Source: an uncultured Eubacteriales bacterium (GTDB lineage Bacteria > Bacillota > Clostridia > Oscillospirales > CAG-272). From it: a stretch of 64,000 bases of DNA. The position numbers and the translations under genes are program-made. Numbering within the stretch: position 1 is the first letter of the stretch; each line of letters starts with the position of its first letter. Of this stretch, positions 16,957 to 63,817 are shown piece by piece. The stretch lies in the NCBI GenBank assembly GCA_934432725.1, contig CAKRZE010000001.1:207031-271030 (forward strand). Reading direction: 5' to 3'. A model generated the notes under the pieces. It worked only from the letters and a program-made list of their open reading frames with translations. It did no database searches and had not been told where the DNA came from.

Positions 16957-16990
16957 GAAAAAACCACTTGCAAAAGCAAGTGGTTTTTCG
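16957..16990 (-). terminator. bidirectional rho-independent terminator just 3' of tRNA-Ser
   Basis: CCACTTGC-aaaa-GCAAGTGG hairpin (16964-16983), flanked by an A-run on one side and a T-run on the other. Confidence 0.8.
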
Positions 16991-17080
16991 TGGCGGAGAA
17001 GGCGAGGATCGAACTCGCGCGCCGGAAACCCGACCTAACAGTTTAGCAAACTGCCCCCTTAACCCCTTGGGTACTTCTCC
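16991..17080 (-). tRNA. tRNA-Ser (anticodon GCT)
   Basis: The reverse complement reads GGAGAAGTACCCAAGGGGTTAAGGGGGCAGTTTGCTAAACTGTTAGG...GCGAGTTCGATCCTCGCCTTCTCCGCCA. It has a 7-bp acceptor stem, anticodon loop TTGCTAA, a long variable arm, a T-arm and an encoded CCA. Confidence 0.9.
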
Positions 17081-17195: not shown

Positions 17196-17233
17196 ATAAA
17201 AGACGCGGGACAGCGGCATATCCGCTGTCCCGC
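17196..17233 (-). terminator. rho-independent terminator downstream of the Cys-repeat lipoprotein gene
   Basis: Perfect 12-bp stem GCGGGACAGCGG/CCGCTGTCCCGC (17205-17233) with a 5-nt loop. On the minus strand it is followed by GTCTTTTAT. Confidence 0.7.
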
Positions 17234-42872: not shown

Positions 42873-43373
42873 TTACCGGATGCTCATACGGGTGCGTCCG
42901 TCATCATAATCGGTTTTTATCCGAATATTCGTTGCATGCAGCGCAGCAGCATTTTTGATAAATTGCAGCAAGAGCTGCTCATCTTTTGCATATATTTCAA
43001 AACAATCTCCGTCAGTAACAAGCACGGCAAACCGGCAGCTGCTTGCCAGAAAGTCGCGGTAATCCCTGATATCCTGCCGCGCATCTCCCCTGCGGTATGC
43101 CTGCAAATTAAGAAAAAACACAAAATAGGGTATGCACGCCTTCAATTTCTCAAAATAGGATGAATCCGTCTTGCCGCCAACAGCAGGCAGTGCGGCGGAA
43201 GTGTGTATTTCCTCCTCACTGATATAAAAATCATACCCGCAAAGCGGAATATTCGCAAAAATACCGCCAAGTACGTCCCCATACCCGATATCAGATAAAA
43301 ATTCTATTCCTCTCATAAAACGATCATTTTGCGTATGCAAAAGCTTCCTTCCCCGGGACAGGAGCGGCATCAC
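42873..43373 (-). CDS. hypothetical protein (immunity-like, no recognisable motif)
   Basis: 166-aa ORF in the same-strand run. The start is uncertain (GTG 43373, ATG 43370 or ATG 43316). Confidence 0.45.
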   Translation of the reverse strand: MMPLLSRGRKLLHTQNDRFMRGIEFLSDIGYGDVLGGIFANIPLCGYDFYISEEEIHTSAALPAVGGKTDSSYFEKLKACIPYFVFFLNLQAYRRGDARQDIRDYRDFLASSCRFAVLVTDGDCFEIYAKDEQLLLQFIKNAAALHATNIRIKTDYDDGRTRMSIR

Positions 43374-43466
43374 AGCACAGGCACGCGCTTTCGGACATCA
43401 GACACCGCCGCTCCTTCTCCACACATTCCTTTTTCTCCGTCAGCCAGCCGCAGCACGGCGCACCGC

Positions 43467-43994
43467 CTATGCCATAAGCCGCATGATCCGCCTCTCATCC
43501 TCCCCCTCAAAGGAAATCTGAGAAATGTCCTCTAAAGATACTGCCGATACTCCGTCCGCTTCCCCGTCGCAGGTAAATTGTCTGATCCGGCATTTTCCCT
43601 CATCTGCCGTCTCAACAAACCCGGTAATGTCATCATACCCGCTTTGGCAAAGCTCAAATGACACAAGGGTCCGGCGGTCTTTTGCAATCTTCAGCACGGA
43701 AAGCATTATATTTTCTCCGTCAATTTTTTCACAAAAATCCGGGAAAGACCCGTCCGAACACAGCTTTTCCATTCTCCTGCCGTATTTTCCGTCTGTCTCT
43801 ATGCGAAAAACACAGCCTGTATCCATGACAACAACTCCATCGTATGCTCCGTCGGGACTTGCAAGCTGCAATACGACCCAGTTTTCGTCCACCGCAAGCA
43901 CCTTACCGTAAATGAACCTTGACGGTTCCTGCTCATCTGTATAGATTCCCGCTTTTTTCCCACTTGCGCATAATTCTCTTAACAATCCGATCAT
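43467..43994 (-). CDS. hypothetical protein with two beta-rich half-domains
   Basis: Trimmed to ATG 43994 (MIGLLRE, SD AAAGGGAG 6 nt upstream). About 175 aa with no recognisable family motif. Confidence 0.55.
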   Translation of the reverse strand: MIGLLRELCASGKKAGIYTDEQEPSRFIYGKVLAVDENWVVLQLASPDGAYDGVVVMDTGCVFRIETDGKYGRRMEKLCSDGSFPDFCEKIDGENIMLSVLKIAKDRRTLVSFELCQSGYDDITGFVETADEGKCRIRQFTCDGEADGVSAVSLEDISQISFEGEDERRIMRLMA

Positions 43995-44058
43995 AACATG
44001 CTCCCTTTCTCTCTGCCGCCTGACGGAATAAACACCGCCGGGCAAATTGTCCGTTTAT

Positions 44059-44580
44059 CTACTGTTCCCGGACCTGCCGATCAAAAACAAGATGGTACGC
44101 CGTATTCCTTACATCCGCCGGACGGCGGCGCTCCGGATCAAAGCAAACCGAAAAATCTCCGCTGTCTGAATAACAGAATAGCAGCTCTGCAAAATGATTC
44201 GAAACCATCTCATCCAACCTGTGTTTTTGATAGTCACGATAAAACCGCTTGAAGGTCTCCCATTCCGAGACAGGATAAAATAACACTGTTTCAAGATAAT
44301 AATCGAAAACAGACGGGATGAAATGATAAATATCCTCTCCCGCTTTGATTCTGGCAACCGTCAGATACTCATTCAGCGCCTGTATCTCTCCGCGGCTTCG
44401 AAAGAACGCTGGAATTTCACTTTTAAGTTCTCTCTCCCGTTTTGCCGTCAGATTTACCCCGTCCGTGCGGTAAAAACCGAAAAACAATTCCTCTCCGGTC
44501 AAAAACGTCTTTAAAATCCGGTCCATGCTGCTCAAATAACCGCTTTGAAAACGAAAATTTTCAAATGTTATTACATGCAT
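44059..44580 (-). CDS. hypothetical protein
   Basis: ORF 44059-44757. The first 59 codons are R/G-rich, so it was trimmed to ATG 44580 (MHVITFENF). No recognisable motif. Confidence 0.45.
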   Translation of the reverse strand: MHVITFENFRFQSGYLSSMDRILKTFLTGEELFFGFYRTDGVNLTAKRERELKSEIPAFFRSRGEIQALNEYLTVARIKAGEDIYHFIPSVFDYYLETVLFYPVSEWETFKRFYRDYQKHRLDEMVSNHFAELLFCYSDSGDFSVCFDPERRRPADVRNTAYHLVFDRQVREQ

Positions 44581-44780
44581 CCCCGAAATCCCCGTATATT
44601 CATGCACGGCAAGCCGCCTCAACTCTGCCGCCTCCTTTCCCGCCCTCCAAAATACCCCGGAACCGTGTCGTCCTTTCCGGATCATCCGGCTGCGACCGGC
44701 AGAACGGAAAATAACATCTGTCGCCGCCTCGGTCTGTCCGCATGCCCTGCGCATCAAGCCGAAAGCGGCTTGGGCCTCCG

Positions 44781-45164
44781 TCAGGATACCGACTGCTTTC
44801 TTTCCGTTTCCTTTTCAATTTCAATGATCCGGATTGCCTTTTGCAAAAAACTTGCCTCCATAAGAATGAAAAGACACAACCCTAATATACCGTCCACAAT
44901 ATCCAAAACAATTCCATATATACGTAAGAAATCTCCTCTCACCACTCTCCATATTTCAAAGCCAAGCCAATCCGCCGTCATATATAAAACCAGACAAAAT
45001 AATGCACTGATCCAAAAACGGCATTTGAGCAAGCGGTTTGCGCTTTTGGGAATTTTAGAATAAATGATAATATTTTCAATTTCTTTGACATGGTCATAAT
45101 AACTGTTAGTTCTTATGTGGAATCGCTCGCCCAAGATATAAAAACACAAGTCCTTCAAGCTCAT
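44781..45164 (-). CDS. hypothetical small membrane protein (2 TM)
   Basis: Trimmed to ATG 45164 (MSLKDL, GGAGGAG SD 9 nt upstream). Hydrophobic segments WISALFCLVLYMTADWLGF and IVLDIVDGILGLCLFILM. The gene is AT-richer than its flanks. Confidence 0.55.
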   Translation of the reverse strand: MSLKDLCFYILGERFHIRTNSYYDHVKEIENIIIYSKIPKSANRLLKCRFWISALFCLVLYMTADWLGFEIWRVVRGDFLRIYGIVLDIVDGILGLCLFILMEASFLQKAIRIIEIEKETERKQSVS

Positions 45165-45448
45165 TTTCAAAATCTCCTCCGATGTCAACCGATCCGGAAT
45201 GCTTGCAGACTCTCACGTATCCGCAAACCGCCGGCGTCCGTATGGACCCGGTCATCCCCATTCTGCTTTTCGCTGAGGAAATACGGTCCGTTTACCGTCA
45301 ATCCGCGCCCGCCCGCAGATCAATCCCGCAAGAAACGCCTCAAGAACCGGCAGAAGAACCTCATGCCTGTCTGCTTTCCGTGCCATATGCCGCCAAGCCT
45401 ATCATACTCCGTCAAAGGCTCCGTGCCGCCTCTCTCCTTTTCAGACCT

Positions 45449-46102
45449 TCACTTCCGATTCATCTCAAGGCGCTTCATTTCTTCAAACGAAATCCGCTGT
45501 CCGCACTCCGAGCATCGAAAAAAGCATATCCTGAATTCCATGTCCCCGTCCGCATATGCATCACCGATTTCAAAATCATAGCTTCCGGCTTCCGGCGAAT
45601 CGGAATTTACACTCACGCTGTCATATGCCACTTCCATTTGTTGTCCGCACACGGGGCAAGCGTGCTTTTTCCAATAAACATAAACCGGCGATGCTCCGTT
45701 ATAGATATATTTTACCGCAGTCGGCTGATCCGGTCCTGTTCCCTCCGCCTTCCCACAGAAGGTGAGAGAAAGAAGGAGCAGCACCGCCGCAACGAGAACA
45801 CAGCATCCCAGGATTCTCCGAAGCAGCGACGGTTTGTAATGTTCAATCTTTTTCATTTCGTCAACCGTATAGCTTTTCCCGCAATGACCGCATTGAAACT
45901 CCGTTCGGACAACCCTGACATTTCCGATCATACATCCGTCATCGAATGAAAAATCATAGTTTTTTGCCTCATCCGAGCCTGAATTGACAATTTTTGAAGC
46001 CCGGGTCACTTCCAGTTCCCTGCCGCACAAAGGGCAATGATGCTTCCTGTATTTCACATAAAACGGACTTTCCCGAACCCACATAATATTATGAACGCCC
46101 AT
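45449..46102 (-). CDS. membrane protein with duplicated double-CxxC (zinc-ribbon-like) module
   Basis: Module 1 is HHCPLCGRELEV...FQCGHCGKSYTVDEMKKIE. Module 2 is HACPVCGQQMEV...FRCSECGQRISFEEMKRLE. They are separated by the TM helix ILGCCVLVAAVLLLLSL. Confidence 0.6.
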   Translation of the reverse strand: MGVHNIMWVRESPFYVKYRKHHCPLCGRELEVTRASKIVNSGSDEAKNYDFSFDDGCMIGNVRVVRTEFQCGHCGKSYTVDEMKKIEHYKPSLLRRILGCCVLVAAVLLLLSLTFCGKAEGTGPDQPTAVKYIYNGASPVYVYWKKHACPVCGQQMEVAYDSVSVNSDSPEAGSYDFEIGDAYADGDMEFRICFFRCSECGQRISFEEMKRLEMNRK

Positions 46103-46271
46103 TCTCCCATACCCCCGTTTATTTCTTCACAGTCAAAGCTGTCATGTAAAATGAACCACCGCCGAAGCCGTCGTCGGTCTGACCGACCCACGTCAGCCCA
46201 GCCGTTTATCCATCCGCAGGCGTTTCCGTGTCTTTAGAGTCCCTCCCGGATGCAAACCCCGAAGTCTCCGG

Positions 46272-46799
46272 TCAATCCGCCAGTTTAAGATACAATTGCG
46301 CACACGCCAATGCCGCATCCACCGCTATAGGGGCTGACGGATACTCAAATACCGACTTATACCGCAGATACACCTTCGGAAGGTTATGCAGTGCCTGAAG
46401 CAAATACCAAATCTTCTGCTGCTTTTTCCTGCTCAATGACTGCACCGTGTGCTCCAGCTGTTCGGCAATCGCCTGCATTGTCCGATTTATTTCCAAATAA
46501 GGCGAAAGATCACAAAGCGACGACAAAGCGAAATTCTCTTCTTTCCACTGATTGAATGACGCTTCGCTGATGCGGAATTGTTCCGTCCTTTCAAGAATTT
46601 TTTTGACAGTTTCATGATCACGCGCCGTTATATGATCGCAGGATATTGCCCGGACCATTTCGCTCATCAGATCAACAGAATCGGCAAGCTCTGCAATATA
46701 GCTTTTTGCCCACCACAGCTTGCCCGGGTTGCATCTTCCCTTTTCATAAACGGTCAGCCGATACAAAGCTTCTCCAAAAAACGATTGCTTACAAACCAT
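46272..46799 (-). CDS. hypothetical helical protein, weakly similar to the immunity candidate at 57027-57485
   Basis: ATG 46799 with an AAAGGGA SD. It shares the pattern (I/L)EH.(V/L)..L...K..(Q/E)....(L/F)..A(L/I)H(N/E)LP with ORF 57027-57485. Confidence 0.55.
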   Translation of the reverse strand: MVCKQSFFGEALYRLTVYEKGRCNPGKLWWAKSYIAELADSVDLMSEMVRAISCDHITARDHETVKKILERTEQFRISEASFNQWKEENFALSSLCDLSPYLEINRTMQAIAEQLEHTVQSLSRKKQQKIWYLLQALHNLPKVYLRYKSVFEYPSAPIAVDAALACAQLYLKLAD

Positions 46800-47076
46800 C
46801 ACAGTCCCTTTCGGCTTTTTTCAGGAATCGATTGTCAGGGCGCAGAAAACCGCATTCGGAGCCGAGCACGTCCGACTGCACACCCGGTCTGTCATATATA
46901 CCGATATATCCGATCTTTTCGCTTTCATTATACATCATTTATGCCAATCGGTCAAGGTTTTTTCCAGATAATTCAACTCCGGTCATGCACCTCTGCGCAT
47001 CCGGCGAGCGCTTCCGCTCCGTCCGGGTACGCGTCGGTCTCTTTTCCCCATGCCTTTGTCCCAGCTGCGGCAAACC

Positions 47077-56341: not shown

Positions 56342-56554
56342 TCATGTATGTGCCTTCCCGGCAAACAGCACAGTCCTTCCCTTCATAGATATTTTTTTGA
56401 CCTCATAACCGTAATCTTCCAGCTCTTTTTTGTATTTCAAAAAAGAATGGTCAAGCGGTACGCCCGCAATTTGTTCTATCTCATCAAAGGTCAATACCAT
56501 CTGCGGCTTTCCGTTTGCCCGTATGTATTCCCAAAGTGCATTGTATTTGCTCAT
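56342..56554 (-). CDS. small hypothetical protein (70 aa)
   Basis: ATG 56554 with a strong AAAGGAGGGG SD (MSKYNALWEYIRANGKPQMVLTFDEIEQIAGVPLDHSFLKYKKELEDYGYEV...). The upstream part of ORF 56342-56788 is a recombination remnant. Confidence 0.6.
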   Translation of the reverse strand: MSKYNALWEYIRANGKPQMVLTFDEIEQIAGVPLDHSFLKYKKELEDYGYEVKKISMKGRTVLFAGKAHT

Positions 56555-56933
56555 TGCCCCTCCTTTGCTGACAATACAGCCCTCACTCTTACAGATCACC
56601 GCATGCGGAACTGATTCATCGTCTGCCATTTTTCCCTTAGAATCTAAGGTTTTTCTGTAAAACGCAATATCTTCATCATGAATAGTCCTACTATCAATAA
56701 ATTTATCATCCAATTTCTGAAATATCCTATAACTCTGAAAAAACGGTGATTTGGAGCACATGCGTATTGTCGCAGACCGCGATGACATCTCCCTGAAGGT
56801 TCGTGATATAGAAATTCAGAAGGATGTCCCCGTCATTTTCATCGTACCGCAGGCAGTATGTGGGCGAACCGTTCTCATCATAGAAGTATTCGATCCAGTT
56901 ATTCCCCCACGTTTCACGCAAAAGCTGCGTGCC
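56555..56933 (-). pseudogene. recombination scar: truncated RHS core fragment fused to an internal fragment of a 63248-63817-like gene
   Basis: 56766-56933 encodes (T)QLLRETWGNNWIEYFYDENG...VCDNTHV, then breaks. 56630-56765 is ~90% identical at the DNA level to 63506-63643. Confidence 0.7.
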
Positions 56934-57026
56934 GCTTTGCCGAGAGCAGGCAGGTTTGCCTGCTCTCGGGCTACTTGATGAAGGAATAACAATGGAGAAA
57001 AACAGGTTTTACGTTAGTGTGGAGGG
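56934..57026 (-). repeat. conserved cassette-junction element, copy A (13-bp-stem hairpin)
   Basis: ~95 bp shared with 58538-58632 and 62134-62230. Hairpin cCGAGAGCAGGCA-ggtt-TGCCTGCTCTCGg at 56940-56969. Confidence 0.8.
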
Positions 57027-57485
57027 TCACCGCTTTCTAATGTTTGTGTGCCACTTTTTTTCATACGGTTTTATATAAACTTTATCAAAACCTCGCGGCA
57101 ACCTATAATGATGATACACTAGTATCTCAGGAAGTTCATGTATCGCATCCACAAAATCATATGCTTGTTCATTTTTTCGATTCTTTAATAAATCCAATAC
57201 ATGCTCAATGCAATTCGTCAATAAAGCATATATTTTTTCATCATACAAAAAATCTCTATGAACATAATAATTATACGTAAAAGCGAATTCATATCGAAGA
57301 TCGCTAGAATCTACAACTGTTACTAATTTCTTACGTATAATATTGTCTGTATATGTTTTGTCACACCCTTTTTTTAACACTTGATGTATTTGATCCAATA
57401 TCATAATGTTATTTTCATGGTTCACATCCATTCTAATAACCATTAAAACATACGATATATCATACAGATCATTATCGTCTATCAT
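57027..57485 (-). CDS. putative immunity protein for the toxin tip at 57488-58066
   Basis: 152-aa AT-rich ORF. Its ATG lies 2 nt after the toxin stop (TAAagATG). Confidence 0.65.
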   Translation of the reverse strand: MIDDNDLYDISYVLMVIRMDVNHENNIMILDQIHQVLKKGCDKTYTDNIIRKKLVTVVDSSDLRYEFAFTYNYYVHRDFLYDEKIYALLTNCIEHVLDLLKNRKNEQAYDFVDAIHELPEILVYHHYRLPRGFDKVYIKPYEKKWHTNIRKR

Positions 57486-57487
57486 CT

Positions 57488-58537
57488 TTACCCCCTGTAT
57501 GCATATACAAATACATCAACAGCTTTTTTGGCTTTAATTGCATATGCAACCCTATGATTACCATTCAAAATAACAACATCAATACCAACCTCCACCATAT
57601 GATCCCCGCCAAATTTTATTGCATTATTCATACGATAAGGATCCAATGTTGAAAATTTTTTCTTTGGTATTAATGTTTTTGGATCAACCCCATACTGTGG
57701 TCCGGTCACTCCGGGCTTAAAAGGCACTCCTATTTTAGGAGACAATTTTTCCACTATATTTCCAGCAAGTTTGCTCGCGCCATAACCAACAGCCGCTTTA
57801 GTTGTTCCCCATGCAAATGATTTTGCTGCATCCGCAACATCATCTATCTCACCATCAATTGCATCCATTACAACTTCAGTAATACCAGATACCACACATC
57901 CAGCCACTGGTCCTACAGCTGAAGTAATAGCACCGGATACCGCTGCCACACCACCCCTATTCCAATTTATTTCAGATATAGAATTACCTGAAAGAAGCTG
58001 TCCAACAACCTCTAAACCAGCAGAAACCACGGCACCTGCAATTATGTGCCAAAACTCGCCGCCTCCGTCAGCACGGACAACGGGGTTATTGTCACAATAA
58101 GCATACAGGTTTTTATCGGTCAGAGCAGATGGGGACGCCATCAGAATTTCAGCCGAATCCGGCGATATCATTCTTCCGATCTCAGGATCGTAATACCGAC
58201 TGGATACGTAGTACAGCCCCGTTTCGCTGTCGTAGACATAGCCTCTGTAGCGCAGACTGTTCCACGATGCCGCGTTGGTCGCGTTCGTCACATCGTCGCC
58301 GTTTGTGTTTGTGACGGAAAGCAGCTTGCCCCATGCGTCATAATGGTAGAAGAACCGCGGCACATGCGTATTGTCGCACATCGCAATGACATCGCCTTGC
58401 AGATTCGTCACAAAGAAGCTGAGCTGAAGGAAGCCCACACGCTCGTCATACCGCAGCATGTACGACGGTACGCCGTTTTCGTCGTAATAATATTCGACCC
58501 AGTTATTCCCCCACGATTCACGCAGAAGCTGCGTGCC
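57488..58537 (-). CDS. orphan RHS C-terminal fragment with ~190-aa toxin tip (possible ParB/Srx-like nuclease end); no own start codon evident
   Basis: RHS core end: GTQLLRESWGNNWVEYYYDENG...YYVSSRYYDPEIGRMISPDS...NLYAYCDNNPVVRAD. A Gly/Ala-rich linker follows, then ...VVILNGNHRVAYAIKAKKAVDVFVY. RHS homology starts abruptly at 58537. Confidence 0.65.
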   Translation of the reverse strand, partial: GTQLLRESWGNNWVEYYYDENGVPSYMLRYDERVGFLQLSFFVTNLQGDVIAMCDNTHVPRFFYHYDAWGKLLSVTNTNGDDVTNATNAASWNSLRYRGYVYDSETGLYYVSSRYYDPEIGRMISPDSAEILMASPSALTDKNLYAYCDNNPVVRADGGGEFWHIIAGAVVSAGLEVVGQLLSGNSISEINWNRGGVAAVSGAITSAVGPVAGCVVSGITEVVMDAIDGEIDDVADAAKSFAWGTTKAAVGYGASKLAGNIVEKLSPKIGVPFKPGVTGPQYGVDPKTLIPKKKFSTLDPYRMNNAIKFGGDHMVEVGIDVVILNGNHRVAYAIKAKKAVDVFVYAYRG

Positions 58538-58632
58538 GCTTTGCCGAGAGCAGGCAGGTTTGCCTGCTCTCGGTCTGCTTGATGGAAGAATAACAATGAA
58601 GAAAAGCAAGTTTTTCGTTCGTATGGAGGGGT
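58538..58632 (-). repeat. conserved cassette-junction element, copy B
   Basis: Same ~95-bp element. Perfect hairpin at 58544-58573. Confidence 0.8.
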
Positions 58633-58665
58633 ACTTCTTTCTTCATTTTCCAAGCAAATTAGTTT

Positions 58666-59052
58666 TCACTTACTCAATGGTCTAAATTCAGTAATAACAA
58701 TATTCTCAATTACATTGCCATTATCCTCAAATATCACCCGAAGTTTAGCGAAAAAAGCACTTCCCATATCATTTTTCAAGATGCAATATATCATATATTC
58801 ATTTGATGAAATCTGCTCCATTCTTTTGATATTCTTTTGATCAGGAGCAACGGAAACAATATTGCCACATTTTTCGAAAAACGTGGGGGCGTCTTTCACA
58901 TATTCTGTTATCAACTGACATAAACCATCCGCCTTCATTTTTTTCGACCAATACCCTGTCAAGGAAAAAACAAGAATGTTCATCATACAAAATAATACAA
59001 TTGCACATACTACAAACACCCGAATTTGAGTTTTTCGTTTCATGCTACTCAT
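58666..59052 (-). CDS. small N-terminally membrane-anchored protein (paralog of 42302-42673)
   Basis: ATG 59052 (MSSMKRKTQIRVFVVCAIVLFCMMNILVFSLTGYWSKKMKADGLCQ...). It sits between cassettes inside the RHS array and is AT-rich. Confidence 0.6.
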   Translation of the reverse strand: MSSMKRKTQIRVFVVCAIVLFCMMNILVFSLTGYWSKKMKADGLCQLITEYVKDAPTFFEKCGNIVSVAPDQKNIKRMEQISSNEYMIYCILKNDMGSAFFAKLRVIFEDNGNVIENIVITEFRPLSK

Positions 59053-59163
59053 TTCTTGAAGCACCTCTCAAAGAACTTGGTCAAATTCAACCCAGCGCTA
59101 AAATATGCACCGCCAATCGCGTGAATTCCTCCAAAAACAGAACTCAAGACAGCAATCGTATAG

Positions 59164-59571
59164 TCAAATGATAATTTCAATATCTACTCCTTTTGATACA
59201 ATATGCAATTCACCTCCCGAAAACATTTGAAACAGCAAGTAAAGACAGGATTCCATACATTCGCTGTTTTTTGGAAGATACGTCTTCAGATATGAAAAAT
59301 CTTCTTCCACAGTTAGCGAAATGATTGTTTCAGAACTTCCATATTTATCGCCCTTAATTGCAAATGCAATTTCTATACCATGAAAGATTAAGATAATCTT
59401 AACATTAAAAATCGGATTAATTAATTCGATTTTTATATTATCTTCACCACATTGATATTGGATATTTTTAAACTTCGCATCATGGACATAACTATTGTAC
59501 AGTAGTTCTTTTAATTCCCGGAGATTACCCTTATCGTATTTTAGCACATCTTCACCTTCATCATTATCCAT
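59164..59571 (-). CDS. putative immunity protein for the toxin tip at 59564-60091
   Basis: ATG 59571 overlaps the last codons and stop of the toxin ORF (ATGGATAA). About 135 aa and AT-rich. Confidence 0.6.
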   Translation of the reverse strand: MDNDEGEDVLKYDKGNLRELKELLYNSYVHDAKFKNIQYQCGEDNIKIELINPIFNVKIILIFHGIEIAFAIKGDKYGSSETIISLTVEEDFSYLKTYLPKNSECMESCLYLLFQMFSGGELHIVSKGVDIEIII

Positions 59572-60727
59572 ATGGAAAATAGATTGTTGCATATGGTTCT
59601 GGCACAATAGTTCCCGGATAATAATGCCCTGTGCCGTATATGTGATAATGTGGACCATTTGCATAAATAGGGTTTTCATCCCATCGAAACACTTCGGTAT
59701 CCGTAAGAGGATTCATCCAACTAATAAATGCCCCATTCTTTGTCCCTGCTCTAAATACTTTAACTAATCCAACCGGATTGAAAGTATTTGGATCTACAGG
59801 AAAAATAACTGACCTGTCAGGCTCTTTGGGAGTTGCTATGTCTTCCGATTTTTCTTCAGATTTCGGAACAGAAATATCTGGATATTTCGTGGCTTGATAA
59901 ATTCCATATCCTATAGCACTTGCAGTTAACAACGCAGCACCAGCCACGGCAACAGCATCTCCAAATGGAAGCGGTCCATCAACCGCAGCCACGCCCCCGC
60001 ACCCCGCATAAGCAGGAGACATAACGCCCATTGCTTTTCTGATTTCGGCAGCAGCTGTTTTAGCAAATTCCCATATTTCGCTCCAAAGTTTTCCCGTATA
60101 GTCAACCCTATTTACAGAATTATTTCCACAATAAGCAAACATGTTAGTGCCCAACACATTGTGCCCTGTAGAACATAACTATCCGGACTAATCCACCGAC
60201 CGATCTCAGGATCGTAATACCGACTGGATACGTAGTACAGCCCCGTTTCCCTATCGTAAACATACCCGCGATAAAGAAGCGTATTCCAGCCCGCAGAGTT
60301 ATCCGTGCTTGTGACAACGTTGCCGTTGACATCCGTCACGGAAAGCAGCTTGCCCCATGCATCGTAGTGATAGAAGAACCGCAGCGCGTGCGTATTGTCG
60401 CACATCGCAATGATATCGCCCTGAAGGTTCGTCACAAAGAAGCTGAGCTGAAGGAAGCCTACCCGCTCGTCATACCGCAGCATGTACGACGGTACGCCGT
60501 TTTCATCGTAATAATATTCAACCCAGTTATTCCCCCACGATTCACGCAAAAGCTGCGTGCCGTCGAAGATATACTGATGCTCCACGCCGTCAACCGTCTT
60601 GGACATCCGGATGCCGTCCGCGTTATACGCATAGCTGTAGGTTTTTCCTCCTACCGTTGCGCTTTGCAGCTGTCTGCCGTTCTGCCATGTGAACGTATAC
60701 CGCCTGCCGTTGTAATAGCTCAGCGCT
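59564..60727 (-). pseudogene. orphan RHS C-terminal fragment plus toxin tip, interrupted by a frameshift
   Basis: Frame A runs QALSYYNGRRYTFTWQNGRQL...YYVSSRYYDPEIGRWISPDS and then goes out of frame. Frame C continues NVLGTNMFAYCGNNSVNRVDYTG...GPHYHIYGTGHYYPG. The shift lies within 60161-60177. Confidence 0.7.
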
Positions 60728-60728
60728 T

Positions 60729-60814
60729 GTCAGGAGCACTCCTGACACCTTTAAGGGCTTGGAATTATCCCAGAGGTCTGCCTTTTGTCCCCAAAGGGCA
60801 ATGCTGGCTGGGAT
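60729..60814. repeat. alternative cassette junction with two palindromes
   Basis: Perfect palindrome GTCAGGAG-ca-CTCCTGAC (60729-60746) and ATCCCAG...CTGGGAT arms (60767-60814). Confidence 0.6.
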
Positions 60815-60842
60815 AGTTATACTATAATTTCATAACTCGCCT

Positions 60843-61148
60843 CTATTCTGTAACAAATATCACATAAAATGAATTTCCGTTTGTTCTTATATAATTTGAA
60901 ATATATTCAAATGCAACCTTAATACTACATTCGACATTGAATTTGGAATCCCGACTGGATTCCATGTTATAATACCAACTATCATAGTTGTATTCCAATT
61001 TTTCTGTCAGAATATCCCCCCCTAAAACGATTTTCTTTTTGATTTTAAAATGCTTAAGGATTAAAATAGCATCTTCTATCATCCAAGCCGTTTCAGTATT
61101 GGAAAAATCCACAGAAGTGATTGTTTTATTTCCAATAGTAATTTTCAT
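60843..61148 (-). CDS. putative immunity protein for the toxin tip at 61153-61656
   Basis: 101-aa AT-rich ORF starting 4 nt after the toxin stop. Confidence 0.6.
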   Translation of the reverse strand: MKITIGNKTITSVDFSNTETAWMIEDAILILKHFKIKKKIVLGGDILTEKLEYNYDSWYYNMESSRDSKFNVECSIKVAFEYISNYIRTNGNSFYVIFVTE

Positions 61149-61152
61149 CTAC

Positions 61153-62133
61153 TCACCTCATCTTCCTAAAAAAACGGTGATTGCACAAACCATTAGGTTC
61201 TAAAATGTACTCAAAAACGCCGGGCGTATTATTTATACTTCCAGGCAGTTCAATCAAATTGCGCATAATACCGTCACCACCTTTTAATGGACGCCCCGAA
61301 TTAATATCAACAAATGTATCAATAACTGACGGAAAAGCGTGATTTAAATCTGCCGCATTATTCATTTGTTTTATAACCTTATCAGTATATCTAATACCGC
61401 TCGCGGATGTGTCAACGATATTCTCAACCCTATTTGCTGTTTTTGCTATATCATGTGTTGTATCTACCACATCAGCGACTTTATTAACCGTTTTAACAGC
61501 TCATGTCACTTCACCAACGCCTGTTACAAACGGAATAAGATCAATTGCATCTCCTGCTAATCCCGCCCATGCCCAAGGATCTGTTGGATTGACACAAACC
61601 TCAACAATACTCGCTCCAAGAGAAATAACATCAAAAACAGTTTCCCAGAGCTGACCGCCGTAGTCAACTCTTACAACAGGATTATTGTCACAATATGCAT
61701 ACAGATTTTTATCGGTCAGAGCAGATGGGGACGCCATCAGAATTTCAGCCGAATCCGGCGATATCATTCTTCCGATCTCAGGATCATAATACCGACTGGA
61801 TACGTAGTACAGCCCCGTTTCCCTATCGTAAACATACCCGCGACAAAGAAGCGTATTCCAGCCTGCGGAGTTATCCGTGCTTGTGACAACGTTGCCGTTG
61901 ACATCCGTCACGGAAAGCAGCTTGCCCCATGCGTCATAATGGTAGAAGAACCGCAGCGCGTGCGTATTGTCGCAGACTGCGATGACATCTCCCTGAAGGT
62001 TCGTGATATAGAAATTCAGAAGGATATCCCCGTCATTTTCATCATACCGCAGGCAGTATGTGGGCGAACCGTTCTCATCATAGAAGTATTCGACCCAGTT
62101 ATTCCCCCACGATTCACGCAAAAGCTGCGTGCC
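61153..62133 (-). pseudogene. orphan RHS C-terminal fragment, TG-motif pre-toxin linker and toxin tip, with an in-frame TGA
   Basis: ...NLYAYCDNNPVVRVDYGG...DLIPFVTGVGEVT-TGA(61503-61501)-AVKTVNKVADVVDTTHDIAKT...GVFEYILEPNGLCNHRFFRKMR. Both halves are in the same frame. Confidence 0.7.
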
Positions 62134-62230
62134 GCTTTACCGAGAGCAGGCAGGTTTGCCTGCTCGCGGGTTGCTTAATGGAAGAATAACAATGGAAAAA
62201 AGCAGGTTTTGCGTTAGTATGGAAGGGGCC
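62134..62230 (-). repeat. conserved cassette-junction element, copy D
   Basis: Same ~95-bp element. Hairpin at 62140-62169 with one mismatch. Confidence 0.8.
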
Positions 62231-62260
62231 CCGTCCTCTTTTTGCATTATTTCATGACAG

Positions 62261-63247: not shown

Positions 63248-63817
63248 TTACTTTCTTTCAATTGCACAATATTTCGTTATTATCGCTGTTAATGGCGCAA
63301 AAACCCCCATGTCATTAACATAAATCTCCATCTCCTTGGCTCCAAACATCGAAACATATACGGGTGCCGAGAATTTAAGCCGTTGCCTACAGGATTTCGG
63401 ACTTTTAAACGATTCTTTGCAGTGTTGTGTCAGTTCGCTTATATCTTTTACGGCGACATATTCCATATCAACATTTTCCATGCAAAGAGACTCCTTGAAA
63501 ACCTCGTCCGCCATTTTTCTCTTAGGATCTAAGGTTTCTCTGTAAAACGCAATATCTTCATCATGAATAGTCCTCCTCTCAATAAATTCATCATCCAATT
63601 TCTGAAATATCATATAACTTCGAAAAAAGCCGGTAATTGGAATTACATAACTATATCCCAATACTTTTCTAGTTTCATAAAAGGAATACAAATGATATCT
63701 GCTGTTCAAAAACTGATTAATATCCCACACCATATCGTTTTTGATTCGGTTTTTGTCAGAACTGCCAGGTGCCCATATTGAAATATTATTTTCCCGGATA
63801 CGGTAAATGTTATGCAT
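63248..63817 (-). CDS. hypothetical protein (immunity-like); an internal 135 bp is duplicated at 56630-56765
   Basis: Trimmed to ATG 63817 (MHNIYRIRENN, AAAGGAG SD 8 nt upstream). About 189 aa and AT-rich. Confidence 0.55.
   Translation of the reverse strand: MHNIYRIRENNISIWAPGSSDKNRIKNDMVWDINQFLNSRYHLYSFYETRKVLGYSYVIPITGFFRSYMIFQKLDDEFIERRTIHDEDIAFYRETLDPKRKMADEVFKESLCMENVDMEYVAVKDISELTQHCKESFKSPKSCRQRLKFSAPVYVSMFGAKEMEIYVNDMGVFAPLTAIITKYCAIERK

Follow-up and report, generated by a model that had tools for sequence, protein, structure and literature searches.

The stretch of DNA analysed here, called the window in the following, comprises 64,000 nucleotides from an uncultured Eubacteriales bacterium (GenBank assembly GCA_934432725.1, contig CAKRZE010000001.1, positions 207,031 to 271,030 of the forward strand) and carries an array of orphan rhs toxin/immunity cassettes, several of which are preceded by a conserved, hairpin-capped spacer that we refer to as the S-element. 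All genes of the array lie on the minus strand. According to their translations and to precomputed Pfam hits they comprise 5'-truncated RHS/YD-shell fragments, each of which terminates with ...YYDPEIGR(W/M)ISPD and then continues into an unrelated C-terminus and small genes; TEN_YD-shell and RHS_repeat match called genes, and Imm40 and Imm-NTF2-2 match their neighbours. With a truncated core that retains a conserved terminus, a variable C-terminus and a small downstream gene, the units have the make-up of an rhs orphan array. The G+C content of the cassette DNA is 0.36-0.47 versus about 0.52. By exact-protein look-up the locus was recovered again on ENA contigs of gut metagenomes from several samples. 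One of them, a 279-kb scaffold, runs collinear with the window and stops 5 kb past it, inside another rhs repeat. The nearest rhs loci among the GTDB representative genomes are found in metagenome-assembled genomes of the Oscillospirales type (Faecousia, Acutalibacteraceae, 'Eubacteriales'), at about 50-80% amino-acid identity, which points to a member of the gut Clostridia.

Three copies of the S-element, each 93-97 nt in length and read on the minus strand, are present in the window (Table 1), and their alignment bears out the preliminary description of this DNA, which had pointed to a shared, structured non-rhs element at precisely these three places. The element is bipartite: a lineage-specific 5' part is succeeded by a GC-rich 13-bp hairpin and a tail of 5-6 nt. 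Pairwise identity over the whole element amounts to 87.8-89.2% among the three copies (blastn), and it is distributed unevenly, with 82-84% in the 5' part and 94-100% in the hairpin plus tail. The stem, CCGAGAGCAGGCA/TGCCTGCTCTCGG, is a perfect helix without bulges; 13 perfect pairs and a 4-nt loop are present in copies 1 and 2, and a single C.T mismatch interrupts it in copy 3. Allowing for up to three mismatches, the 28-mer of the hairpin, CGAGAGCAGGCAAACCTGCCTGCTCTCG, matches the window three times, with zero matches expected from 100 dinucleotide-preserving shuffles. Between hairpin and rhs stands the tail CAAAGC (TAAAGC in copy 3), and the rhs homology then begins at the identical base in all copies, |GGCACGCAGC. 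The tail AAGCGG includes the pentamer AGCGG, the Chi sequence of Bacillus subtilis; this could be chance. On its other side the element takes up the whole gap back to the preceding immunity gene and begins at its stop codon or close to it. The earlier statement that the flanks diverge completely beyond the element proved too strict: weak AGAAAG-type similarity runs on for about 20-35 nt past the 5' edge given before, and the homology of copy 2 with a copy in locus L014, from another sample, spans 128 nt and reaches the stop codon of the preceding gene.

The S-element is a property of this array and is not explained by rhs homology alone. Within the 64-kb window it is confined to the array, and the exact 22-mer of the hairpin has no match in the GTDB representative genomes (one per species), in the metagenome collection or in the viral contigs; as far as the window and these collections go, it is not a genome-wide repeat of the repetitive extragenic palindromic (REP) or miniature inverted-repeat transposable element type. 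Nor is it a single recent segmental duplication, as the copies differ by 6-18% and have unrelated 5' flanks. Of the two findings that the preliminary description had named as refuting it, neither was made. When the entire element was compared by BLAST with 79 rhs loci from GTDB and 120 metagenome loci, matches of chance length only were obtained. At gathering level, the Rfam scan of the window reported only the tRNA at 16994-17080, and when 56-64 kb was scanned permissively (E <= 5), nothing overlapped the element but a chance-level FsrA match of 18.5 bits against a threshold of 80 bits.

For a count of the units in the whole array we relied on the 15.7-kb end of the 279-kb scaffold (locus L011), which holds nine rhs-fragment units. 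Four of the nine have a full S-element, namely the three window copies and one beyond position 64000 that is 98.9% identical to copy 1 and has a different 5' flank and one stem mismatch. A further unit retains only the hairpin and its tail, with unrelated sequence ahead of the hairpin, and in another the hairpin is a variant, GCCGGGAG...CTCCCGGCAAAGC, with no more than 64 nt of rhs behind it. Two 'long-type' units are without an S-element, and the remaining one is truncated by the end of the contig. All six S-type units (four full, one hairpin-only, one variant) start their rhs part at the same nucleotide. The count of three given in the preliminary description consequently holds for the window and has to be raised by these three copies past its end, and the interval that it covered contains a fourth cassette (rhs fragment 60181-60720) which lacks the S-element and has a different conserved leader. 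Units of the S-type recur at 99-100% identity in independent assemblies from other samples and are therefore not artefacts of one assembly. A protein search for the main rhs gene and the 5' flank of the array gave only short proteins of up to 316 amino acids, and a putative empty site for the variant copy in locus L007 turned out to be a scaffold gap of Ns and is uninformative.

The breakpoint at which rhs begins can be followed into diverged relatives. In L013 and L014, two contigs from other samples, the rhs fragments are only about 75% identical in DNA to those of the window array. L014 possesses one S-element, 94.6% identical to copy 2 over 92 nt. In addition, two units of L013 and one unit of L014 show the very same rhs breakpoint behind a different hairpin, CCGCGTGCAGGTA-loop-TACCTGCACGCGG, which is followed by CGGAAC or CGGAGC and preceded by sequence unrelated to the 5' part of the S-element. 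L013 also holds the end of a main rhs gene, which precedes the hairpin-capped orphans, and the homology between gene and orphans starts at this same breakpoint. Since two diverged lineages share the identical breakpoint and, 5-6 nt upstream of it, a hairpin, the junction should be old. We infer that it is an ancient truncation junction of single origin that has been inherited and not re-made, and the suggestion that the shared element might be the relic of a common donor is, as far as the origin is concerned, essentially right.

What has been retained of the hairpin since then is its pairing. Over nine copies, 96.6% of the cells of the 13-pair stem form standard pairs, and between the two hairpin types three stem pairs have been changed on both sides (A-U/C-G, A-U/U-A and C-G/U-A). 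None of 500 shuffles reached the observed pairing or covariation score, and controls slid along the sequence pair to only 29-41%. The non-Watson-Crick pairs of the boundary hairpins read as G.T on the array-sense strand, with three clear cases and no A.C among them, a pattern that RNA-level selection on the sense transcript would give. The comparison of the nine copies argues that the hairpin is under selection for pairing, with its sequence free to vary.

The units themselves are mosaics. We split them into five segments, i.e., the 5' spacer, the hairpin with its tail, and the rhs stretches +1..48, +49..170 and +171..360, and compared the window copies 1-3 (c1, c2 and c3) with further units of the array (among them u3 and u4). 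In the 5' spacer, c1 groups with u3 (100%), and identity with c2, c3 and the copy of L014 is 79-84%. Hairpin and tail are 94-100% identical among the S-type copies of the array (86-91% for the L014 copy), and rhs +1..48 is 88-100% identical across all units, the long types included; neither segment resolves any groups. In rhs +49..170, c1, c3 and u4 form one group (97-99%) and u3 and c2 another (100%), with about 70% identity between them; in rhs +171..360 the groups are u4, u3 and c2 (97-98%) on one side and c3 with the long types (97-98%) on the other, about 77% apart. Such discordant groupings are the pattern expected from homologous recombination or gene conversion, and the block of about 85 nt formed by the hairpin and the first 48 nt of rhs is probably one of the short conserved zones in which crossovers fall. 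A strain variant (L008) fits this picture: there, the copy-3 unit switches to the toxin of another unit inside the rhs repeat and not at the hairpin.

These data lead us to lean toward the view that the S-element is the conserved intergenic leader of a repeated orphan-cassette unit which is spread by homologous recombination and whose hairpin probably acts in RNA. Non-rhs DNA ending in a GC-rich hairpin would have been fused once to the rhs core at codon G55 (GTQLLRESW; this codon and the q positions given below follow the numbering of our rhs query), yielding a unit with the order hairpin, rhs fragment, toxin C-terminus, immunity gene and spacer. Thereafter, units would have been duplicated, exchanged and converted by ordinary homologous recombination, with crossovers in short near-identical blocks. 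An array fragment spanning two rhs pieces would replace the C-terminus of the main rhs gene through a double homologous crossover, and the displaced C-terminus would stay behind as an orphan carrying exactly this junction. As incoming array pieces would bring the junction along, the shared boundary needs no dedicated recombinase.

The part assigned to the hairpin is less certain. It always follows an immunity gene and stands directly ahead of an untranslated rhs fragment, its loops are variable, and it has no T-run. In the array-sense RNA it would form a stable stem-loop between cassettes, which might shield the upstream immunity mRNA from 3' exonucleases or, alternatively, cap the RNA of the downstream cassette and insulate it from the untranslated rhs fragment. 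We therefore favour, with modest confidence, a function as inter-cassette RNA stabiliser or insulator, so that the processing or insulating signal considered in the preliminary description survives in this form, given the compensatory changes that keep the pairing, and falls as a classical terminator, given the lack of a T-run.

Several observations weigh against this interpretation. All three compensatory pairs lie on one branch between two clades and so count as a single lineage split, even though three positions were altered and the stem stayed perfect, and the G.U asymmetry rests on very few events, too few for significance. The loops fall outside the known stable tetraloop classes, and perfect 13-bp Watson-Crick stems with constant spacing of the arms would equally suit a palindrome that works at the DNA level, such as a protein-binding site or a cruciform. 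The toxin switch in L008 might be a chimera created during assembly through a repeat of 400 nt. Because the scaffold breaks off within an rhs repeat, it reaches neither the main rhs gene nor the 5' end of the array, where a recombinase could lie. Moreover, between c2 and the L014 copy the spacer is about 94% identical and the neighbouring rhs 72-75%; conservation of the spacer above that of the adjacent rhs could signify a further function or a recent exchange.

The two long-type units of the array carry a second structured leader of about 85 nt, the L-element, which ends at the rhs boundary in much the same way. It is a truncated copy of a palindromic element of about 128 nt that is present, at about 90% identity, in about 30 of the 79 rhs loci, whose carriers span many families of the Clostridia, and in which terminal inverted repeats of 16-23 bp flank four small hairpins. 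Rfam had no match on four loci with the full element. With respect to one and the same conserved downstream flank (GGTA|CATAACAG...), the interior of the element is found both ways round, and it is thus either an invertible segment or a small mobile palindrome inserting either way at one target. The 23-nt core of the L-element is common in the metagenome collection, with at least 120 loci, and among the 120 core matches listed 84 have another context, which lacks both the terminal inverted repeat and a neighbouring rhs. In the aligned cases of that other context, the core stands immediately upstream of a small gene. At the one locus that was annotated (L098), this small gene is NikA-like and is followed by genes for a MobA/VirD2 relaxase, for DUF3801 and ArdC, and for a type IV coupling protein; as a set they form a conjugative DNA-processing module. 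About 65 nt, the left part of the L-element, are common to the region upstream of the nikA-like and MobA/VirD2 genes; by its position, the L-element resembles a putative origin of transfer (oriT). The S hairpin shows no similarity to the relaxase-linked contexts, and no relaxase family was detected on its nearby called genes.

Fusions of hairpin-rich leaders to rhs are not restricted to this array. In related arrays, a common leader downstream of the palindromic element has been fused to rhs at about q1, q11, q33, q54, q64, q70 and q154-159, and leader/rhs junctions in related Clostridia arrays often lie 2-6 nt past a hairpin. In locus L179 (reverse strand, about 4040-4160), from a distant species with 42% amino-acid identity, a full palindromic element stands 5 nt ahead of the S-class breakpoint, and rhs starts there at D54/G55 (DSFQLL versus DGTQLL). 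In L155 an ATG and 19 leader codons are joined in frame to an rhs fragment, which indicates that some 'orphans' own a translation start. A 98-amino-acid open reading frame behind the corresponding leader in L043 matches no Pfam or NCBIfam family. GC-rich hairpins of -18 kcal/mol or below occur within 110 nt upstream of 26% of the 5'-truncated rhs fragments versus 7% of random positions in the same loci, and in an 'ETG' class an unrelated hairpin can take the place of the one that stands at a set distance from rhs. Palindromes are hotspots of deletion and joining. We suppose that in hairpin-rich leaders occasional illegitimate fusions to rhs would arise beside hairpins, that successful ones would be inherited, and that the S-element would be a lineage-specific member of this kind of leader. 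A recurrent motif near rhs cassettes, sometimes in tandem, has a variable stem and the constant loop GGGGACGGTTCT, often followed by TTGACAA.

Table 1. Coordinates of the S-elements, the associated rhs fragments and related leaders (positions refer to the window unless a locus is named).
Feature	Position	Strand	Remarks
S-element copy 1	56934..57026	-	full spacer, from the stop codon of a 152-amino-acid immunity-like gene (57027-57485) to a truncated rhs fragment
Copy 1 hairpin	56940..56969	-	13 perfect pairs, 4-nt loop, tail CAAAGC, then rhs
S-element copy 2	58538..58665	-	58538-58632, extended to 128 nt through the L014 copy; starts after the stop codon of the open reading frame 58666-59064
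Copy 2 hairpin	58544..58573	-	13 perfect pairs
S-element copy 3	62134..62230	-	TAA in the rhs frame one codon ahead of the junction
Copy 3 hairpin	62140..62169	-	12 of 13 pairs, one C.T mismatch
Near-identical block: hairpin, tail and first 48 nt of rhs	58490..58573	-	86-100% identical across the S-type copies compared, including that of L014
Junction tails	56934-56939, 58538-58543, 60721-60725		both leader types: hairpin plus CAA(A)GC, then rhs
rhs-core fragment, last unit	56755..56933	-	common breakpoint; breaks off after about 180 nt, joined there to sequence related to 63504-63628
rhs-core fragment, copy-2 unit	58157..58537	-	common breakpoint to the YYDPEIGR core end; toxin C-terminus and immunity gene next
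rhs-core fragment, copy-3 unit	61753..62133	-	
Long-type rhs fragment, fourth cassette	60181..60720	-	no S-element; homology extends 158 nt further 5'
Truncated L-element, long-type orphan leader	60726..60811	-	ends in hairpin plus AAGC directly at the rhs boundary
Full-length palindromic element, examples	L026:1131-1259, L027:13453-13581, L043:11708-11836 (inverted)		
Palindromic element, orientation pair	L072:4482-4604 (+) versus L056:2375-2496 (-)		
Palindromic element, orientation sets	L027, L076 (+) versus L030, L032, L040, L043, L078 (-)		
Leader 'A' behind the palindromic element	L155:1644-1870; L043:11840-12266		hairpin CAGTTGGAGGGTATTTATCCTCTAACTG, GGAGG ribosome-binding site, ATG (MRKVKLIVHETYQGKRKRE...)
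GGGGACGGTTCT-loop motif	L020, L021, L036, L045, L048, L054, L055, L058		intergenic

The hairpin might also be a neutral scar, a leftover of the ancestral fusion such as a terminator stem that has lost its T-run, kept intact merely by co-conversion with rhs and by mismatch correction within the palindrome. The rise in identity from the 5' part of the element toward the rhs junction is what co-conversion would produce, single unrepaired stem mismatches persist in c3 and u3, a further unit, u5, is a decayed variant, and ad hoc leader/rhs fusions are numerous in related arrays. Yet three independent stem positions have been changed on both sides with the 13-bp stem still perfect, other classes and species also have GC-rich hairpins just ahead of their orphan rhs fragments, well above the control frequency, and the replacement of the ETG-class hairpin by an unrelated one occurred at the same position. 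We therefore hold this explanation to be improbable, although it deserves to be kept in mind.

A DNA site for recombination or processing was the first possibility raised for the element, in the form of an attachment site of a cassette-capture mechanism. The hairpin, with or without its tail, would be an attC-, dif- or lox-like core or the nick site of an HUH enzyme (a relaxase, a Rep protein or an IS200/IS91-type enzyme) that excises, captures or mobilises single cassettes. Each cassette is indeed bracketed by direct repeats of a perfect palindrome (arms of 10-13 bp, centre of 4-10 bp), both arms of which have been altered symmetrically between lineages; two distinct leaders finish alike as hairpin, CAA(A)GC and rhs; the sibling leader in the same array derives from an oriT-like element; the palindromic element of L179 stops 5 nt from the same rhs breakpoint; and a precedent exists in rAID-1, discussed below, where immunity arrays that have repetitive intergenic sequences are linked to a recombinase. 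No integrase, recombinase, transposase, relaxase or reverse-transcriptase family was found, however, on the called genes of the 15.7-kb array and of about 4-64 kb of the window, i.e., for roughly 60 kb downstream. The hairpin shows neither the R/L-box pattern of attC nor the features of dif, and it is unlike the origin-of-transfer contexts. The junction hairpins of related arrays are unrelated to each other in sequence and their junction points shift in the leader as well as in rhs, which fits structure-prone illegitimate fusion better than a sequence-specific enzyme. The exchange points that can be seen, including the switch in L008, fall in rhs homology. In view of these findings, a capture or attachment site is a doubtful proposition. 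Further candidates of this kind, namely the end of a group II intron, a tRNA-like element, the end of an insertion sequence of the IS200/IS605 family and the target hairpin of a diversity-generating retroelement, were dropped, since Rfam gave no match, genes for a transposase or a reverse transcriptase were not found, and none of their end signatures is present.

A more far-reaching version would extend to both leaders. The S hairpin with its tail and the oriT-like L-element, which takes the corresponding place in sister units and in other species, could be working DNA-processing sites at which the relaxase of a conjugative element or another hairpin-specific nickase cuts a few bases 3' of the stem, and the cassettes would then spread among gut Clostridia coupled to conjugation. 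A cassette would leave as single-stranded DNA with the rhs homology as its leading end, would be inserted by RecA into the rhs locus of the recipient, and the next hairpin would serve as termination site. A nick at ...CTGACAAG| or ...GGTACATAG| would tie the formation of the junction to the action of a relaxase. We give this scenario little credence.

Equally small is the chance, in our estimation, that the S-element is a cis-regulatory or small RNA in its own right. Here a first, A/U-rich hairpin would expose the C-rich, anti-Shine-Dalgarno-like loop CCCUCCAYAC, and the GC-rich hairpin would be a 3' stem; in a variant of the idea, the plus strand would encode a small peptide, M(E/K)K(S/N)(K/R)F.V..EG, behind an AAGGA ribosome-binding site. 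The loop is the best conserved unpaired stretch in all S copies, the minus-strand folds reach z-scores of -2.4 to -5.7, and every copy has a plus-strand ATG with a purine-rich (AAGGA/GGAAG) stretch just upstream. The covariation term of the first hairpin is nevertheless unfavourable and many of its pairs are broken, and we rejected it as a conserved structure on the basis of its poor covariation by RNAalifold. No T-tail follows the hairpin, the Rfam scans gave no match to the element, there is no promoter consensus on either strand, and a scan for sigma-70-like promoters returned nothing in any of the three copies. The plus-strand codon differences between copies are mostly non-synonymous and the C-termini are unrelated, which led us to reject a coding role of that strand. 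Coding on the array strand was rejected as well: the frame is open in copy 2, interrupted by a TAA inside copy 1 and by the TAA at the junction of copy 3, and has no ribosome-binding site.

That the hairpin, a strong GC-rich stem-loop after each immunity gene, is an intrinsic terminator closing the transcript of each cassette is scarcely credible: next to it come CAAAGCGGCACG on the array strand and GCTACTTGATG on the other strand, with no T-run either way, unlike the three other long perfect GC hairpins of the window (3606-3638, 16959-16988 and 17205-17233), which are terminator-like, lie just downstream of open reading frames and all have T-runs. In the scan, none of the copies has a terminator-like site on the array (minus) strand. 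One weak terminator-like match on the plus strand (62221-62242) overlaps the 5' edge of copy 3. The absence of a T-run and of promoter hexamers that had been noted at the outset is hence confirmed by the scans for the array strand.

The favored reading, an inherited leader with an RNA hairpin, can be set beside several known arrangements. Intercistronic stem-loops that stabilise mRNA include the REP-type hairpins of the malEFG operon of E. coli and the 5' and 3' stabilisers of Bacillus mRNAs. The S hairpin resembles them as a GC-rich stem without T-run between cistrons in which only the pairing matters, and its place, behind an expressed gene and ahead of untranslated sequence, agrees as well. 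Unlike the REP elements, which are genome-wide repeats, the S-element is confined to the array. Silent cassettes for antigenic variation are flanked by repeats as well, the Sma/Cla repeat of Neisseria pilS and the 17-bp repeats of Borrelia vls. They share with our array a short conserved non-coding block at the edge of 5'-truncated silent cassettes that offers homology for gene conversion; those systems, however, serve the frequent variation of a surface antigen, and dedicated cis elements, for instance a guanine quadruplex (G4) structure, are required in some of them; the present data show nothing of the sort.

The palindromes at the cassette boundaries, their direct orientation and the retention of structure more than of sequence recall the attC sites of integrons. 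In contrast to attC, there is no IntI-type integrase on the called genes covered, the stem is a plain perfect 13-mer that has no R''/L''-L'/R' boxes, no GTTRRRY core and no extrahelical bases, and the rhs homology sets in at the cassette boundary. For the rAID-1 arrays of the Bacteroidales, an integron-like acquisition has been proposed; they consist of a tyrosine recombinase of XerD-like type at the 5' end, co-directional low-GC genes and repetitive intergenic motifs (Ross et al., 10.1101/471110). Our array is similar in its long series of orphan immunity genes and toxin fragments, its low G+C content and its repetitive intergenic sequences. It differs in belonging to another phylum, in having repeats tied to rhs homology, and in having no recombinase in the DNA covered here, with the 5' end of the array lying beyond the scaffold.

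The closest counterparts are the orphan rhs/cdiA toxin/immunity cassettes, which lie downstream of the main gene and are exchanged by homologous recombination with displacement of the C-terminus (PMC3150448, PMC3967940, PMC3482391). Truncated core fragments, a divergent toxin C-terminus, an immunity gene and a mosaic structure with exchange in rhs homology are common to both. The differences are that several orphans here have exactly the same truncation point and a hairpin-capped spacer, and that the host is a Gram-positive gut Clostridia member and not an Enterobacterium. The papers searched on orphan rhs arrays contained no hairpin-capped spacer with a fixed breakpoint and no oriT-like element in the same slot, and nothing specific on hairpins or inverted repeats at orphan boundaries or on invertons in rhs loci. 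We accordingly consider the conserved hairpin-capped leader with a fixed breakpoint a new variant relative to the known rhs orphan arrays.

Orphan toxin/immunity arrays are a bacterial stockpile for swapping weapons and shields, and little is known of them in gut Firmicutes. The orphans described here are units with a fixed breakpoint and a leader that appears to be selected for its structure, and not random truncations. With a hairpin that can be mutated and a block of about 85 nt that can be tracked, they offer a handle on the expression and exchange of silent cassettes. The location between cassettes of the oriT-like L-element, conserved at about 90% in several Clostridia families, suggests a link between conjugative elements and the horizontal transfer of toxin cassettes.

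A few minor observations concern the cassettes and their surroundings. The last unit of the array is itself a mosaic: past about 180 nt of rhs, its sequence is 92% identical to part of the gene 63248-63919 (56619-56743 versus 63504-63628; in wider limits 56342-56788 versus 63248-63919), and the outcome is a chimeric open reading frame of 148 amino acids. The toxin frames of two cassettes are broken (61470-61501 and 60112-60160). The open reading frame 61501-62121 stops and resumes as 61153-61470, and that at 60112-60606 overlaps 59564-60157 in a different frame; the two interrupted frames look like pseudogenised orphan toxins adjoining intact small downstream genes. About 10 kb downstream of the array (43000-46800), next to a polysaccharide biosynthesis cluster, there are further small immunity-like genes, among them one with a DUF2691 match and one for a duplicated zinc-ribbon protein, and these small genes may be an older part of the array.

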